A stretch of DNA of 64,000 bases from Shigella phage SSG23. Shown in pieces: positions 35,820-42,654 of the stretch. The notes beneath the pieces are model-generated. The model was given only the letters and a program-made list of their open reading frames with translations, did no database searches and was not told where the DNA came from. The stretch lies in the sequence record PQ351811. The stretch is one strand, 5' to 3'. How positions within the stretch are numbered: position 1 is the first letter of the stretch; every line of letters begins with the position of its first letter. The translations under genes and the position numbers were made by a program.

Positions 35820-38800
35820 TTAGTCTTCCCAGATAAAGTCTACGGTACGAGTCAGATTATTGGCGATGATTTTAACATTACCAACTTTGATCCAATCACG
35901 AACCGTCATAGAGTTCATTAAACCACCTTCCGCAACCACTGCCCCGATTTCCTGAGCGGTAGGCTTATTCTGTTTGGTGTAAATTTCACCCCAGGCGGTC
36001 CATTGACCACCAGTACCGGAACGGATATAATGTTTATGAGTACCATCAGGGGACCAAAGCTGGGTAAGCCCGTCCTCGTCAGTGCCCCATTGCATCAGAG
36101 TACCGTTTTTCTTCTCTGGATAAGTATCTTTGATGTTCTTGGTAGTAACGCGCATATTCCAGAAACCGATATTACCGATTGCCGGAGCGGTTGCCGCGCT
36201 AGCTTCATGCTTAACAGAAACAATAGGCGCATTATCCATAATCAGCTTACCGACCATTGTATCGCCAGCATTCTTAACAAACTGACGGTTAAGAACTTCG
36301 TCAGCGTTTCCTGCGTGTACGATCTGATATTTCTGTCCGGCGATCTCTGTAGTTAACGTTTGATAACCTGCCTTGATGTTAACACTTCCACCGTGACCGA
36401 TATTCAACATACCATCAGGGGAACGAGTCATTGCCGGATTAGACTGGTCAACAATGTATAAACCGCCTTGTTTCGCATACAGGTTACGACCTGCAATAAA
36501 GTCTCGATATGCTGCCGCGTCGCCATTATGTTCCATAGCAAAGGCGTAATGCTCGACAAATCCAGAATCGTTAATCTTACCAAAAGCGATAGCATCACTA
36601 TCAACAACTTGCGCTGTTCCAGTACCACCAACGATAATAGACCATGAGTTTTCCATACCTTCCGATGCGGTTGTGCCGTGCAGAGTAATTCCGGTGTGAC
36701 CGTCAACTCCACGCTCACCCAATACCAGATGACCATTACTCGGATCATCAGTCGAGTTCTTAGTCACAAACAGAGTTTCAAAGGAACCAGATTTTAAGCA
36801 CTCTAAATCGCCCTTCACGTTAACGTTTTTATTAAACGTGTAATTGCTCTCAATGGTCTGGTCAATGTCTCTACGCGCCCATTTAGCGGCCTCTACGTTA
36901 CCCAATTTCAAACTATTCTGAGCGGTTGCCATCTTAGGTAAGAAATTAGCAAGTGCGTAGTTTAATCCTTTAGGGGTAACAGCTATTCCGTCATGCTGGT
37001 AATTTCCTAGTTCTTGAGTAGAACCTTGCAGATTATCACCAACAAAACAGTTTTCCTGAGTAGCAACTTTCAAGAAACCACGACGCGCTTCGGTTGCTTT
37101 CCATGTATCCTCTGTCTGAACAACATATTTGAAGTTCTTCGGAGAAATTGCTACATTGTCCAGTGTACCAGCGACGGTTTCGGCTTGAGTACCAACTCGG
37201 ATAATACCTTCTTTAACTTCGGTGGCCTTTTTGCCTTGCAGCTTTTTAGGGGTAATGATCGTGGCGTCATCTTTTCCCGCATCGGTAAGCTGAGTAGTAG
37301 CAACTTTAGCGACACCTTTTGTATCTTCGGTTGCATCAAGACCGCTGATCATGATACCTTGCCACAAATCACCAGTAAGGTTAAGCCCCTGAGTCGGATC
37401 TACTTTCAAACGCTGTGCATTCTCAAAGAAGGTTTTAATCTTCAATGGGGTAGAAATGCGAGCGTCGTCACGACCTGCGTCAAATTCCGGCTGAGTTGCA
37501 ATTTCTGCTAAACCGTGTAGAGTTTCCGTCGCACGGCGAGTATGCAGCTTTTTAGGCGTGATGATATGGTTATCACTCTGACCTAAGTTTGTTTCTTCCT
37601 GAGTTGCAATTTCAGCGATACCAGTACGCGATTCGGTAGCAGTACGTTTCGTTAGCGTGCGAGTAGTGATCAGCAATGCATCTTGCGGGGTTGATTCTGT
37701 AGCCCCTTGCACTTCCGCGTCAGTTGCCAGATAGCCAACACCACGGGAAGTTTCGGTCGCCTTGACCTCGTTGATGTTTTGTGGTGTAACAATTTTAGCA
37801 TGGTCATTGATGTTATAGATCCCTGTACCAGCTTCGCCACGTCGAGCGGCAGCACGACCGCCTACCTGAACAATTTCAGCAATACCAGCGAGGTCTTCGG
37901 AAGCGCGACGTTCTTCTAATTTCTTAGGAGTAATAGCGCGGGTATCGTCTAAACCTTCATTGGTTTCGTGCTGGGTTGCAATTTCCATCACACCACGACG
38001 GGCTTCGGTAGCAACACAGTCATTTAACTTTTTAGGTGTAACGATAACATCATCCAGGAAGCTGGAACCAGTATCTTGATGCGTTTCCGCCTGAGTAGCA
38101 ATACGAGCAATACCGCGTCGAGTTTCGTTGGCGGTTTTATTAGCCAGCATTTTTGGCGTTACTGCAACTTCGTCGCTAGGATTCTCTTCATGGTTTTTAT
38201 TCGTTTCATTCTGGGTAGCCAGTGCAATTACACCAACACGCTCTTTGCGAGTCGGATCTACTCGTTCTACGATCGGGTGAGCGTGTGCTACCAACCAGTG
38301 TTTCTTACCATCATCACCTTCTGAATAAGAGAACTCCAGATAAGGTACATAATCATTTGCAGCGTTGAACGACAATTCAGACACTTCCTTCCACGTCTCG
38401 GTCCCGTTGAATGGGTACTCGCTACGTTTCGGAAACTGAACCATGTTTTTCTGCATAAGGATTTTTGTATCCTCTGCGGCGGTGATAATACGGCAATTCT
38501 GGTTTCCGTGCATATACTGCATAGAAACTTGGATACGATCACCAGGCTCGACGTTGGTCGGTAGCGTCAGAGTAACATCATGATCACCAAATACAGCAAC
38601 ATAGCTATTAGGTTGCAAGCGAGTGTCATCGATGATCGGTTTAAGACGAACAGACTGATCACCATCCCACACACGCCATAAGTTTTCCGGCTTATCAAAG
38701 ATGAATACACCATGACCGCTACGCTTACCGATAATCTCTTTTAGACCGAACGTGCCGATTGATTGTTCTTCTGCGTGCTCATGGACTTTAACCGTAACGT

Positions 38801-39560
38801 GGTTGGTTGCGGTTAATCCGTCAAGGTCTGTAGTCTGGATCATGTCGCCATTGTTGGCAAACTTAGGAAGCACTAAGGTAATATTACCCAATGAACTACG
38901 ACGAAATACTTGATCACCATTCTGCATTTGAATAGCATCAATTGCTGGCTGTGCGTACACACCGCGCGGCTCTGTTCCCGTCTGATAAACGTGCCAACGA
39001 TTGCGAACAAAGATGAAATAGTTCATTGCATAAGGGGTAGTGCAATGCCATTTTCGGTTATACACATTACCGTTATGATAGAACTCATGCCCTGAACTCA
39101 AGAACGATAATTCGTTAACACCACACTTGCCACCGATATCTTTTACTGTTATAGTGTCTCCCTCTGCTGGTTTATTTGGCATAGAGAAAGTCAAGTTTGC
39201 AAATTGACCATCTGCTGCGATATAATCACCAGACTTTAAAGGAGTATCACCGGAAGTTGCTGCAACATAGTCCCAACGTGGGTCCGTGCGCAGTGCTTGC
39301 CATTTAGTCGGGTCAAAATCACCTGCTGGCTTTGTGATATCTTCTTTTGCATAATACGGGCGGTTTTGATAGATTGTAGTTCCGTATTGATCATAACCGC
39401 GAGTTGTGTCATACTGAGTAATACCATTATGGTAATTGAAAAATTCAACGTTGACCGCATCGGTGTTGACATTCTTATCAGCCAATGCTACATTGACGAC
39501 CTTTTCATTACCAGCGTCAAAGCCAAATGTGGCCTTGAAATGTTGAGAAAAATCTGCCAT
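35820..39560 (-). CDS. 34: long tail fibre proximal subunit gp34
   Basis: 1246 aa; N-terminus and repeated ...ITPKKL.../...TETRRG(I/V)A(E/R)IAT... modules match T4 gp34; C-terminus ...VDFIWED. Confidence 0.9.
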   Translation of the reverse strand: MADFSQHFKATFGFDAGNEKVVNVALADKNVNTDAVNVEFFNYHNGITQYDTTRGYDQYGTTIYQNRPYYAKEDITKPAGDFDPTKWQALRTDPRWDYVAATSGDTPLKSGDYIAADGQFANLTFSMPNKPAEGDTITVKDIGGKCGVNELSFLSSGHEFYHNGNVYNRKWHCTTPYAMNYFIFVRNRWHVYQTGTEPRGVYAQPAIDAIQMQNGDQVFRRSSLGNITLVLPKFANNGDMIQTTDLDGLTATNHVTVKVHEHAEEQSIGTFGLKEIIGKRSGHGVFIFDKPENLWRVWDGDQSVRLKPIIDDTRLQPNSYVAVFGDHDVTLTLPTNVEPGDRIQVSMQYMHGNQNCRIITAAEDTKILMQKNMVQFPKRSEYPFNGTETWKEVSELSFNAANDYVPYLEFSYSEGDDGKKHWLVAHAHPIVERVDPTRKERVGVIALATQNETNKNHEENPSDEVAVTPKMLANKTANETRRGIARIATQAETHQDTGSSFLDDVIVTPKKLNDCVATEARRGVMEIATQHETNEGLDDTRAITPKKLEERRASEDLAGIAEIVQVGGRAAARRGEAGTGIYNINDHAKIVTPQNINEVKATETSRGVGYLATDAEVQGATESTPQDALLITTRTLTKRTATESRTGIAEIATQEETNLGQSDNHIITPKKLHTRRATETLHGLAEIATQPEFDAGRDDARISTPLKIKTFFENAQRLKVDPTQGLNLTGDLWQGIMISGLDATEDTKGVAKVATTQLTDAGKDDATIITPKKLQGKKATEVKEGIIRVGTQAETVAGTLDNVAISPKNFKYVVQTEDTWKATEARRGFLKVATQENCFVGDNLQGSTQELGNYQHDGIAVTPKGLNYALANFLPKMATAQNSLKLGNVEAAKWARRDIDQTIESNYTFNKNVNVKGDLECLKSGSFETLFVTKNSTDDPSNGHLVLGERGVDGHTGITLHGTTASEGMENSWSIIVGGTGTAQVVDSDAIAFGKINDSGFVEHYAFAMEHNGDAAAYRDFIAGRNLYAKQGGLYIVDQSNPAMTRSPDGMLNIGHGGSVNIKAGYQTLTTEIAGQKYQIVHAGNADEVLNRQFVKNAGDTMVGKLIMDNAPIVSVKHEASAATAPAIGNIGFWNMRVTTKNIKDTYPEKKNGTLMQWGTDEDGLTQLWSPDGTHKHYIRSGTGGQWTAWGEIYTKQNKPTAQEIGAVVAEGGLMNSMTVRDWIKVGNVKIIANNLTRTVDFIWED

Positions 39561-39588: not shown

Positions 39589-39596
39589 TATTTATA
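39589..39596 (-). promoter_or_regulatory. T4-type late promoter TATAAATA upstream of gene 34
   Basis: Plus-strand TATTTATA 39589-39596, about 29 nt upstream of start codon at 39560. Confidence 0.6.
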
Positions 39597-39634: not shown

Positions 39635-39820
39635 ATGGTTAAAGTTGATTTGTCAGACGGCGCAAAATGGATAGTTGACAGAATCCCAGATAAGGATTAC
39701 AATTATTTCCGTGCCGAATTAAACAATGCAATTCTGCGAGTTATGGAGAAATACGGGTATGATCGTGAAGTATCTAACTCGTTTGGCGAATATGTTGTTG
39801 TGAGAGTGGAGAGAACTTAA
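39635..39820 (+). CDS. hypothetical protein
   Basis: 61-aa ORF directly upstream of rnh. Confidence 0.3.
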   Translation: MVKVDLSDGAKWIVDRIPDKDYNYFRAELNNAILRVMEKYGYDREVSNSFGEYVVVRVERT

Positions 39821-39822
39821 TT

Positions 39823-40770
39823 ATGACGTATAACCCGTTTACAAAAACTACCGCTACACTTAATGATTTCTTCGATGATCCAGAAGATAAACTGCCGGAA
39901 GGTGTGCATTTGATTGATATGTCGCAGCTTATGATTGCTACTATCTCTCATACATTTAAGCCGGAAGATCCGATTAATGAAGGTATGATTCGTCATCTTA
40001 TCCTTGACACCATGCGTTATAATATGACAAAATTCAAAGAGCAATACCCGATTACGGTACTTGCCTTTGACTCTAGCAAAGGTTACTGGCGACGTGATAT
40101 CGCACCATATTACAAACGTAACCGCAAGGAAAAGCGAGACGCAGATCCGCGTGATTGGGATATGATCTTTGCGGCGATCAATAAGATCACCGAAGAGTTT
40201 AAAGAGAACATGCCTTATCACGTTATTAAGGTTGACAAAATTGAAGCAGATGATATAATCGCTGTGTTAACTAAAAAGTTTTCTGTAGAAGGTCGCCAGG
40301 TGCTAATCAACTCCGGCGATGGTGACTACACACAGTTGCACAAATACAAAAACGTGAAACAGTGGGCACCAGTACAGAAAGCATGGAAGAAGTGCAAATA
40401 TGGTAGCCCATACAAAGACCTTATGGTAAAATGTGTTAAGGGCGACGCAAAAGACGGTGTAGCCTCTGTCAAATGTCGTAGTGATTTTATTATCTCTCGA
40501 CTGGAAGGGGAGCGAGCTAAACCAATTGCAACCAAATGGTTAGAGCAAATTTTCGATGTCGAAGATCCAAAGTCTTTGATGACAGAGGAAGAAGCACGAC
40601 GCTTTGACGAAAACCGCGAACTTATTGATTTTGAATTTATTCCTGATAACATCGAATATGAAATTTTGTTAGCCTGGGAGAAATCTAAACCAGCACCACG
40701 CGGTAAAATTTATAACTATTTTGTAACAAATGCGTTAGTTAAAATGTTGCAGAAAATTGGTGAGTTCTAA
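39823..40770 (+). CDS. rnh: RNase H / 5'-3' exonuclease (FEN family)
   Basis: 315 aa; VRHLILD, GYWRRDIAPYYK, MPYHVIKVDKIEADDIIAVL, DGDYTQLHKYKNVKQW, PRGKIYNYFV and C-terminal ..KIGEF match T4 Rnh. Confidence 0.9.
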   Translation: MTYNPFTKTTATLNDFFDDPEDKLPEGVHLIDMSQLMIATISHTFKPEDPINEGMIRHLILDTMRYNMTKFKEQYPITVLAFDSSKGYWRRDIAPYYKRNRKEKRDADPRDWDMIFAAINKITEEFKENMPYHVIKVDKIEADDIIAVLTKKFSVEGRQVLINSGDGDYTQLHKYKNVKQWAPVQKAWKKCKYGSPYKDLMVKCVKGDAKDGVASVKCRSDFIISRLEGERAKPIATKWLEQIFDVEDPKSLMTEEEARRFDENRELIDFEFIPDNIEYEILLAWEKSKPAPRGKIYNYFVTNALVKMLQKIGEF

Positions 40771-40780
40771 GGGTTGACAC

Positions 40781-41377
40781 ATGAAAGAACTTGAATTAAA
40801 ATACTATGCTCATTCACAGGAAGGTGTAGAAACAATCTGTGATTTGTGGGTGGCAATGTATGACGGGTACAATCTCATAGACCGAGATAACATATTAAAA
40901 CACGAATTTTATTATGATACCGAAGATCATGCACTGCGTCGAAAAGGAATTTATGCTCGACTTGACGTTAACAGATCATTGATCATGGTCAAAATAGGTG
41001 ATAGTGAATCTGGACTATTCAACCGAGAAGAAATTACTTTTTCAACAATGGATGATTTCTATCACTATGTTGATAGTCTAGGCGTAAACTCCGACCTTAT
41101 CGTCCCTTTACTGCAAGTTATGACATATCGCAAGTCATTGACACTTGACCTTGAGGGTGCTATAGTGGAAATGTGCAAAGACACTTTCTATTATTGCAAA
41201 GTAGGCGAAGGAATGGGCGACGCTCACTATGAACTTGAGTTCGAGTTAAAATCAGGTGATGAAAAAGCACTTGACATTATCCGAGAAATGATGCTAGAAT
41301 ATGTCGGCGATGATTTAAGTCCTAGCGAAATCTCAAAAGCTGAACGTGGTTTTCAATTAATGATTAAAGAGGGTTAA
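40781..41377 (+). CDS. CYTH-domain (triphosphate tunnel metalloenzyme) protein
   Basis: 198 aa; N-terminal ExExK (ELELKY), YYDTEDHALRRKGIYARLD, NREEIT, YELEFELK fit CYTH (CyaB/ThTPase) signature as recalled. Confidence 0.55.
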   Translation: MKELELKYYAHSQEGVETICDLWVAMYDGYNLIDRDNILKHEFYYDTEDHALRRKGIYARLDVNRSLIMVKIGDSESGLFNREEITFSTMDDFYHYVDSLGVNSDLIVPLLQVMTYRKSLTLDLEGAIVEMCKDTFYYCKVGEGMGDAHYELEFELKSGDEKALDIIREMMLEYVGDDLSPSEISKAERGFQLMIKEG

Positions 41378-41381
41378 TATT

Positions 41382-41657
41382 ATGACTGAACAGAAAAAAG
41401 AAAAAGTAGTATTTGACGAAGCAGTACACGGAAATACCCTGGCACAACTGATTAAAGAAGCCAGCGATCAGAAAACCATTCAAGAAGCATACGGCGATAA
41501 GATCAAAGAGATCAAACAGCGTGCTAAAGAAGAATTAGGAGTAGATGGTAAAATGTGGGGCATTCTGTTTAAACTGTATCACCAGCAACAGCGCGAAACC
41601 TTCGAAGCGGAACGCGATGAAGCGGTAGAACTCTATGATCGGGTGTTCAATGCTTAA
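41382..41657 (+). CDS. hypothetical protein in the dsbA position
   Basis: 91-aa ORF upstream of 33; positional only. Confidence 0.35.
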   Translation: MTEQKKEKVVFDEAVHGNTLAQLIKEASDQKTIQEAYGDKIKEIKQRAKEELGVDGKMWGILFKLYHQQQRETFEAERDEAVELYDRVFNA

Positions 41658-41913: not shown

Positions 41914-42594
41914 ATGATCAGAAACCGTCTTCCTCCAGATCCAGATATGCGAATTAATGCTAAATCTGTGTATATGTTATATTGCATGATGAAAGCTCAT
42001 ATGAACGGGCGTTATGATTGTGTAAAATATAATTGGAGGATGCGGTTATCTGATGCCGCATTCAATAAACGCAGAGATAAGTATTATTTCGCGAAATTAG
42101 CGGAAAAGTACAATCTAAGAGAATTATACTTCCTATTCCTAAGCAATCTGGTAGCTAATACCGATGCATGGGTAGGTGAAATCACTGATGTTGACGCATA
42201 CGGATTTTACATGGAGTATATCGGTAAGATCACTGATGCGGCAACACGATTTGACGATGACATTAAAAGTCTTGTATACTTCTCCGAGAAACGCGGGGTT
42301 ACTCTTAAAGAGCTAATTACATACAATCCCGCAACCGAAACTAGCGGTATCTTTAAGCTACTGCAAAATCGGATTATATCGTTTGAGTCGTTTATGTTGT
42401 TAGATAGCTTTCTAAATATAATCGACGAACACGACAAGGTAGCCAAAGACTTGATTTGGCAAACTTATAGTGTTAAAATGAAGGCGTACAAGAAACTACT
42501 TGTTATTGACGCCACAAAAGCAAGAGCATTATTTGTTAAAGTAGTTAAAGAGTGTAAAGAAATATCTCAATTAAAAGCCGAAACAAATAGTTGA
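41914..42594 (+). CDS. 59: helicase loader gp59
   Basis: 226 aa; KSVYMLYCMMKAHMNGRYDCVKYNWRMRLSDAAFNKRRDKYYF, LVANTDAW, IFKLLQNRIISFESFMLLDSFLNIIDEHD match T4 gp59. Confidence 0.9.
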   Translation: MIRNRLPPDPDMRINAKSVYMLYCMMKAHMNGRYDCVKYNWRMRLSDAAFNKRRDKYYFAKLAEKYNLRELYFLFLSNLVANTDAWVGEITDVDAYGFYMEYIGKITDAATRFDDDIKSLVYFSEKRGVTLKELITYNPATETSGIFKLLQNRIISFESFMLLDSFLNIIDEHDKVAKDLIWQTYSVKMKAYKKLLVIDATKARALFVKVVKECKEISQLKAETNS

Positions 42595-42618
42595 CAAGTA
42601 AATCTAAATCTGTATAAT
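42591..42618 (+). promoter_or_regulatory. sigma70-like promoter with extended -10 (TTGACA-16-TGtTATAAT) upstream of gene 32
   Basis: -35 overlaps the gp59 stop codon. Confidence 0.55.
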
Positions 42619-42654
42619 AGTCTAGTAAATTAATCAAAAGAAGGAATAGTGAAT

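Follow-up and report, generated by a model that had tools for sequence, protein, structure and literature searches.

A stand-alone YgiF-like triphosphate-tunnel protein encoded between rnh and dsbA of Krischvirus phages is probably a phosphohydrolase and almost certainly not an adenylate cyclase

Shigella phage SSG23 (sequence record PQ351811) encodes a 198-residue CYTH-domain protein that we consider likely to be a stand-alone YgiF-like triphosphate-tunnel metalloenzyme (TTM), acting as a Mg2+/Mn2+-dependent phosphohydrolase and probably expressed early in infection. The window referred to here is the whole 64,000-nucleotide stretch of SSG23 DNA that was analysed. The open reading frame (ORF) is preceded by a GGG-rich Shine-Dalgarno sequence, starts with ATG at 40781 and ends with TAA at 41377 on the + strand, exactly where an initial annotation made from the sequence alone had placed it, and all of the motifs quoted in that annotation, including ExExK (ELELKY), REE and ELEFELK, are present in the product. 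The gene order assigned from Pfam matches is gene 34 (the proximal long tail fibre gene, 35820-39560, minus strand), a 61-aa ORF, rnh, the CYTH gene, dsbA, 33, 59 and 32. The CYTH gene and its two neighbours are as follows:

39823-40770, + strand: rnh (T4 RNase H / 5'-3' exonuclease), the upstream neighbour, with a 10 nt gap; Pfam RNaseH_C and 5_3_exonuc_N.
40781-41377, + strand: gene for the 198-aa CYTH / triphosphate-tunnel metalloenzyme; orthologous to RB49ORF244c and assigned to phrog_14893.
41382-41657, + strand: dsbA (late-transcription dsDNA-binding protein), the downstream neighbour, with a 4 nt gap; Pfam Phage_DsbA.

In T4, rnh and dsbA are directly adjacent with 8 nt between them, and the CYTH gene is an extra gene relative to T4, in agreement with the initial annotation. 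Its location between rnh and gene 33, however, needs correcting, as the gene lies between rnh and dsbA and does not adjoin 33. Shigella phage SFHK24 (PQ351812) matches the window with 100% identity, and RB49, JSE and other Krischvirus genomes match it at approximately 96%. Among 50,697 phage records searched with tblastn, 58 encode the protein, all of them Krischvirus, and the gene is present in each of the 58 Krischvirus records.

The product matches Pfam CYTH (PF01928) over residues 27-190 with 28.6 bits (gathering cut-off 23.2; E = 1.5e-6), and the family profile matches YgiF in the Protein Data Bank (PDB) with E = 0.0027. An AlphaFold2 model based on 18 family members (pLDDT 88, pTM 0.80) has eight long strands plus helices, and the eight-stranded antiparallel beta-barrel of the tunnel fold is present. 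The profile match, the fold and the residue mapping described below thus bear out the initial assignment to the CYTH/TTM family, for which a Pfam search had been named as the check. A profile search of 1.84 billion representatives recovers 229 CYTH-type proteins at E <= 1e-3, but only three (P0040, P0043 and P0044) score at about E = 1e-30 or better, with P0045 at 1e-15 and then a weak tail of approximately 225 cellular CYTH and CYTH-CHAD proteins; among predicted viral structures the only close match is to the protein's own family. Within the CYTH branch the phage proteins stand apart as a small clade confined to phages. Its more distant members share the genomic position: P0043 (46% identical) has the full rnh, CYTH, dsbA, 33 arrangement, and P0044 (38%) and P0045 (30%) immediately precede dsbA-33, their short contigs ending before rnh is reached. 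All three contigs are of T4-like phages, and the next match, P0046, is an archaeal cellular gene. P0046 (201 aa) is the closest cellular relative; it directly follows a PRK-family kinase gene on an archaeal metagenome contig (L010, 4797-6606) with archaeal surroundings (Sec61-beta, RIO1), in a kinase-TTM order that resembles plant TTM1/2.

The phage protein is 23% identical to the N-terminal TTM domain of the inorganic triphosphatase YgiF (PDB 5a60/5a61). YgiF is 433 aa long with a CHAD domain at residues 221-433, whereas the phage protein ends right after the plug helix and has no CHAD domain, with dsbA starting 4 nt after the gene; the clade is thus the YgiF tunnel domain without CHAD. Recent capture from a host was considered and rejected, given the 23% identity to YgiF and best cellular matches at only E ~1e-12 from diverse organisms including an archaeon. 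The tunnel fold also occurs in RNA 5'-triphosphatases, and a Cet1-like chemistry in which the gamma-phosphate is cut off 5'-triphosphate ends, whether on RNA primers made by the primase and processed by the RNase H encoded next door, or on host mRNAs to speed decay that depends on the 5' end, is a conceivable alternative. We regard it as very unlikely, because the protein belongs to the CYTH branch (PF01928) and not the Cet1 branch (PF02940, mRNA_triPase), matching neither the profile nor the closest structure expected of a Cet1-like enzyme, and YgiF is much closer than any RNA triphosphatase. Moreover, T4 removes its primers without such a gene, adjacency in T4-like genomes is weak evidence for functional coupling, and no RNA-binding surface was identified.

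The domain call itself is not new, as the CYTH similarity of this exact gene has been on record since 2003-2006. The RB49 ortholog, RB49ORF244c, is 96% identical to the SSG23 product and carries the GenBank note "similar to P45267, P30871, HI1598, ygiF"; Table 3 of Nolan et al. 2006 lists it with a Pfam "CYTH domain" match at E = 0.0026. Most deposited genomes nonetheless label the ortholog a hypothetical protein, with "adenylate cyclase" in the PHB13, AV108 and KMB43 records and "inorganic triphosphatase" in the Makalu_001 and Makalu_002 records, and PHROGs lists phrog_14893 with function unknown. Literature searches found no functional study of any phage CYTH/TTM protein, nothing functional on Krischvirus and adenylate cyclase, and for ygiF and phage only a Pseudomonas resistance mutant with a speculative link to lipopolysaccharide. 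No match to the protein was found in NCBIfam or in PADLOC at E <= 10, and no paper was found that combines CYTH, anti-defence and phage. Nothing at present ties the gene to defence evasion, and the roles in host takeover or defence raised in the initial annotation are speculation. The details that appear to be new are the YxRxD plus Lys40 signature, the intragenic alleles, and the conserved promoters in and around the ORF, all described below.

To map the active site we used residue roles in YgiF from Martinez et al. 2015 and a comparison set of 141 cellular relatives, of which the 129 with the motif were used in a test of spacing. The pairwise and profile register given by HMMER contains a 2-residue gap and places Tyr58 on YgiF Arg56, implying loss of the catalytic arginine. 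This register was rejected as an artefact because the first Arg lies at +14 after the D/E of the YYD/ET motif in 129/129 cellular sequences, and phage Arg60 is likewise at +14 from the YYDT Asp. MAFFT alignments agree with the +14 register and place the indel in the beta3-beta4 hairpin, which is two residues shorter in the phage protein than in YgiF, and the published thiamine triphosphatase (ThTPase) residues Y39, W53, R55, R57 and K65 fit a +12/+14/+16 spacing. The three principal motifs are encoded at:

40787-40801, + strand: codons of E3-L-E5-L-K7 (ExExK); E3 and E5 correspond to the YgiF metal-2 ligands E4 and E6.
40952-40966, + strand: codons of Y58-A-R60-L-D62 (YxRxD), the clade form of (small residue)xRxR / W-YxRxR.
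41231-41251, + strand: codons of E151-L-E153-F-E155-L-K157; E153 corresponds to metal 1 (YgiF E160) and E155 to metal 2 (YgiF E162).

In this register the phage residues, their YgiF equivalents and the roles of these are:

E3, E5: YgiF E4, E6; metal 2.
K7: YgiF K8; basic tunnel residue.
Y44, D46: YgiF Y40, E42; conserved YYD/ET motif.
R60: YgiF R56; catalytic Arg, and YgiF R56A strongly inhibits.
K71: YgiF K69; substrate binding, and orients E4.
R82, E84: YgiF R81, E83; basic tunnel residue and acidic patch.
R117: YgiF R126; basic tunnel residue.
D134: YgiF D143; conserved.
E153: YgiF E160; metal 1, invariant across all TTMs.
E155: YgiF E162; metal 2.
K186, R189: YgiF K191, R194; C-terminal plug helix.

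All of these residues are invariant or nearly so in the phage family. ExExK is invariant in 141/141 cellular relatives and in every member of the phage clade, and neither the four metal-ligand glutamates nor the catalytic Arg vary even in members at 30% identity. The initial annotation had noted that loss of the conserved tunnel residues on proper alignment would count against the family assignment; the metal ligands and the catalytic Arg are in fact retained, although the second Arg of xRxR is replaced by Asp62. Conservation alternates along each of the eight strands, with an average identity of 0.84 at positions in register with the tunnel ligands and 0.66 at outward-facing positions (Mann-Whitney p = 2e-5), and selection therefore preserves the tunnel lining, as expected of an active enzyme.

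These residues also bear on whether the protein makes a cyclic nucleotide or hydrolyses a triphosphate, a choice that was initially left open. Vogt et al. 2021 describe three motifs that separate class IV adenylate cyclases (AC-IV) from CYTH phosphatases, namely HFxxxxExExK, substitution of the first xRxR Arg by Val, Cys or Leu, and a beta8 ExE that is strictly ExA; in their scheme, CYTH proteins that lack HF are TTM phosphatases or ThTPases. In the phage protein an HF motif four residues before ExExK is impossible, since the sequence begins M1-K2-E3 and ExExK starts at residue 3. Arg60 is kept and invariant, whereas in AC-IV enzymes, where Arg would clash with the ribose, the position is taken by a small residue, and beta8 has E153-F-E155 with an invariant Glu155 in place of ExA. 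The protein thus differs from the class IV cyclases CyaB of Aeromonas and YpAC-IV (PDB 2fjt and 3n0y) in lacking the HF motif and in keeping both the gate-keeper Arg and the second Glu of ExE. YgiF, the nearest characterised relative, is a specific inorganic triphosphatase that cleaves thiamine triphosphate (ThTP) slowly, does not cleave ATP, GTP, pyrophosphate or polyP65, and has no detectable cyclase activity. Because all three AC-IV determinants are absent the "adenylate cyclase" labels are unsupported, and many such labels in the family are historical mis-annotations. Judged from its sequence, the protein is almost certainly not a class IV adenylate cyclase, and it is highly improbable that it works as a CyaB-like adenylate or nucleotidyl cyclase and supplies the infected cell with a cyclic nucleotide, the function that some GenBank labels imply. 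Triphosphate hydrolysis is favoured instead, and a two-metal phosphohydrolase is the best-supported mechanism for the predicted activity.

The phage clade departs from its cellular relatives at a second set of positions, predicted to face inward, with the orientation of Y58, D62 and K40 derived from homology and strand periodicity. At +12 the cellular sequences have A, S or G in 108/129 and an aromatic residue in only 2/129, and at +16 they have R in 127/129. Relative to YgiF the changes are G54 to Tyr58, R58 to Asp62, L36 to Lys40, K128 to Ser119, G145 to Phe136 and I156 to His149. Among the 141 cellular relatives the corresponding residues are:

Asp62: Arg in 139/141 cellular relatives; Asn in P0045.
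Tyr58: Ala, Ser or Gly in 117/141.
Lys40: mainly Leu; invariant in the clade down to 30% identity.
Glu42: mainly Asn or Asp.
Phe136: Gly in 108/141.
His149: mainly Ile.
Met69: Thr in 128/141.

Position 58 is the position of Trp53 in ThTPase, which stacks on the thiazole ring of the substrate. Vogt et al. 2021 report W/YxRxR as the ThTPase hallmark, with a small residue there in the other clusters except plant TTM1/2, and Martinez et al. conclude that the chemistry is set by the side from which the substrate tail enters the tunnel. From these alignments YxRxD and Lys40 appear to remodel the side of the tunnel where ThTPase binds its substrate, and the changes on that side suggest a triphosphate carrying an organic group. 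The phage enzyme might therefore hydrolyse an organic triphosphate entering from the ThTPase side, such as ThTP, adenosine thiamine triphosphate (AThTP), a (d)NTP or a nucleotide-derived signal, so resetting host physiology or removing a signal. Several further observations are consistent with this, including the match of Tyr44 and Lys71 to the ThTPase Tyr39/Lys65 dyad, the probable inward-facing placement of the K40, E42, D62, F136 and H149 changes, and the slow cleavage of ThTP by YgiF itself. Both ThTP and AThTP are enigmatic metabolites that E. coli makes on starvation; as much as 50% of its total thiamine can be ThTP when amino acids run short, and no microbe is known to have a hydrolase for these compounds.

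The jumbo-phage CYTH ORFs, for which a nucleotide-clearing role through NTP degradation has been proposed, are virus-encoded TTM-fold proteins too, as are Aeh1ORF004c and the capping RNA triphosphatases of giant viruses, but their kinship to the Krischvirus protein is at the level of fold only (Foldseek TM ~0.5, 8-15% identity), and none has the position between rnh and dsbA or the YxRxD signature.

A true ThTPase is harder to reconcile with the data. The mammalian 25-kDa thiamine triphosphatase (THTPA; PDB 3bhd and 5a64) is approximately 13% identical to the phage protein and structurally less similar to it than is YgiF, and its R57, the second Arg and a ligand of the beta and gamma phosphates, corresponds to Asp62. 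Its thiamine pocket lies near the C-terminal plug helix, with Tyr79 and Met195 in the mouse enzyme. Tyr58 is invariant in the Krischvirus alleles and in P0043, but the two most distant members, P0044 and P0045, have Val or Ile and so lack the aromatic residue of THTPA. The ThTPase option included in the initial annotation thus gains from Tyr58 at the Trp53 position and loses from the incomplete motif. Overall, we think it unlikely that the enzyme is specialised for an organic triphosphate.

The CYTH gene is consistently the fastest-diverging gene of its block, as comparisons of the window with other loci illustrate:

Window vs Phi1: neighbouring proteins 95-100% identical, CYTH 84%.
Window vs Skers, L004 and L006: neighbouring proteins 92-100%, CYTH 57-58%.
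Window vs L003: neighbouring proteins ~80%, CYTH 50%.
Window vs L007: neighbouring proteins ~78%, CYTH 38%.
Window vs L009: neighbouring proteins 70-76%, CYTH 34%.
40801-41218, + strand: variable cassette, codons ~8-146, with DNA identity to Skers of 45-58%.

DNA identity to Skers is by comparison approximately 90-100% in the first 20 nt and last 160 nt of the CYTH gene and in most of the flanking genes. Synonymous sites within the cassette are saturated between allele classes (proportion of synonymous differences, pS, 0.76-0.84), whereas synonymous divergence (dS) in the neighbouring genes is 0.06-0.33. Saturated alleles on a near-identical backbone point to at least three ancient alleles (RB49/Phi1-, Skers- and P0042-type) that have moved by intragenic recombination. 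Rapid positive selection was rejected as the cause of the divergence, since the ratio of nonsynonymous to synonymous substitution rates (dN/dS) is no more than 0.32 and the synonymous sites are saturated between classes; no evidence of positive selection on the CYTH gene was found at the resolution of this comparison. In the window-Phi1 pair, where it is measurable, dN/dS is 0.32 for CYTH and 0-0.09 for the neighbours, values indicative of purifying selection that is weaker on CYTH than on the adjacent genes.

Identity to Skers is also reduced (62-85%) at 40621-40680 in the 3' part of rnh, and at 36961-37080 and 38581-39120 in gene 34, within genes that are otherwise 95-100% identical, and these patches suggest further small recombination tracts in rnh and the proximal tail-fibre gene. 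Downstream of gene 32, from about 43660, identity to Skers falls below 50%, which from the alignment appears to mark the edge of the conserved replication block; the variable region beyond it (43716 onward) has a 109-aa ORF in the window and a GIY-YIG nuclease gene in Skers. The 59-32 intergenic position (42595-42648 in the window) is a probable homing endonuclease hotspot, with an HNH endonuclease in Skers (L002, 5802-6398), the GIY-YIG gene segG in T4 (L013, 1910-2542) and none in the window.

In one isolate, vB_EcoM_G2494 (MK327935; L012, 601-1196), the CYTH ortholog is split into two ORFs, 66 and 130 aa long, as a 1-nt frameshift would produce; the larger piece is also present as protein cluster P0035 and as BFVD A0A482GBZ4. 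Either the knockout is natural or the sequence contains an error; a genuine split would hint that the gene can be dispensed with. Together with the rapid divergence and the exchange of a near-universal Arg for Asp, this raises the prospect of a product with no catalytic activity left, serving as a binding protein or sponge, or of a dispensable evolutionary remnant. We find this scarcely credible, however, as the four metal-ligand glutamates and the catalytic Arg persist at 30% identity, dN/dS is well under 1, the tunnel lining is selectively conserved, and the gene has been retained in all 58 Krischvirus records.

The region is rich in matches to sigma-70-type promoters, with 25 on the + strand between 39400 and 42700 where 10.2 +/- 3.3 are expected. 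Near-consensus sites (TTGACA, a 16-18 nt spacer and a TATAAT-like -10) occur at 39675, 40232, 40774, 41138, 41271, 41819 and 42591, all on the coding strand and several within ORFs; three are in or at the 600-nt CYTH gene. Those of most relevance are:

40232-40259, + strand: perfect TTGACA-16-TATAAT in rnh, 549 nt ahead of the CYTH start codon; a putative early promoter that would serve CYTH and downstream genes.
40774-40802, + strand: promoter-like TTGACA-17-TAAAAT overlapping the CYTH start codon.
41271-41300, + strand: promoter-like TTGACA-18-TAGAAT in the conserved CYTH 3' end, upstream of dsbA.

Six loci keep the 40232 consensus in place with 12/12 matching bases, among them L003 with its saturated synonymous sites. 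In the 40774 element the -35 hexamer lies between the Shine-Dalgarno sequence and the ATG, and the -10 is made of codons L6-K7-Y8 at the catalytic ExExK motif, such that a transcript starting from it would be predicted to lack the CYTH start codon. This element is at -7 in 7/8 loci compared, down to the 38%-identical allele of L007, and the eighth locus (L009) has TTGACA-17-TATAAT at -27 in its place. An element of the 41271 type is found approximately 88-106 nt before the stop codon in 7/8 loci compared, with none found there in L003. At 42591 a perfect consensus falls on the early promoter annotated for gene 32 in RB49. Because their positions are kept across alleles with saturated synonymous sites, the elements embedded in coding sequence are probably real RB49-type early promoters. 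RB49 has only early and late promoter classes and no MotA. No late promoter TATAAATA was found on the + strand near CYTH; the sole nearby copy, an exact T4-type late promoter, is at 39589-39596 on the minus strand, just upstream of gene 34. Late expression of CYTH was therefore rejected, as the lone TATAAATA serves gene 34, and the gene is most likely early and co-transcribed with rnh-dsbA-33-59. The 39589-39596 promoter is situated in the 74 nt that separate gene 34 from the divergently oriented + strand block of early genes.

In the mechanism we propose for the phosphohydrolase, the sigma-70-type promoters would drive early expression of the protein along with the rest of the replication and late-transcription block, rnh-dsbA-33-59. 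A triphosphate would be held in the middle of the barrel by K7, R60, K71, R82, R117 and metal 1 (with E153 as ligand), and metal 2, bound by E3, E5 and E155 with E84 in support, would activate a water for attack on the terminal phosphate, with R60 in the catalytic role that Arg56 has in YgiF. Inorganic triphosphate, which YgiF cleaves, is one candidate substrate, and the organic triphosphate suggested by Tyr58, Asp62 and Lys40 is another.

Several points weigh against a functional phosphohydrolase of this type. In place of the second Arg of xRxR, present in 139/141 cellular relatives and a contact to the beta and gamma phosphates in ThTPase, the phage protein has Asp62; this reversal of charge, if the alignment places it correctly inside the tunnel, could weaken triphosphate binding or alter the chemistry. 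Ser119 seems to stand where YgiF has K128. At 23% identity to YgiF, substrate specificity is not transferable. Finally, the split gene of G2494 raises the possibility that the CYTH gene may be dispensable.

Taken with the allelic diversity, the tunnel changes also allow a more specific scenario, in which the clade evolved a ThTPase-like Tyr58 platform and a Glu42/Asp62/Lys40 tunnel mouth independently of animals, and hydrolyses an organic triphosphate (ThTP, AThTP, a nucleotide-derived signal or 5'-ppp RNA), with the diversity of surface alleles reflecting host-phage conflict. We consider this doubtful, and a degree more so than an organic substrate as such.

The main value of these observations is a corrected annotation and a defined biochemical target, the domain call being ordinary. 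They correct an "adenylate cyclase" annotation that is spreading in Krischvirus records, and "inorganic triphosphatase" is best read as a homology guess. With its fixed genomic position, the YxRxD plus Lys40 signature, a length of 198 aa, a soluble fold and obvious point mutants, the clade is well defined and cheap to study biochemically. If the substrate were ThTP or another organic triphosphate, the enzyme would be the first in microbes or viruses dedicated to such a compound, and ThTP in particular would provide a handle on the long-unexplained role of this compound in E. coli. The ancient alleles of one accessory gene within an almost clonal core replication block also constitute a clean case of intragenic cassette exchange in the T4-like phages.
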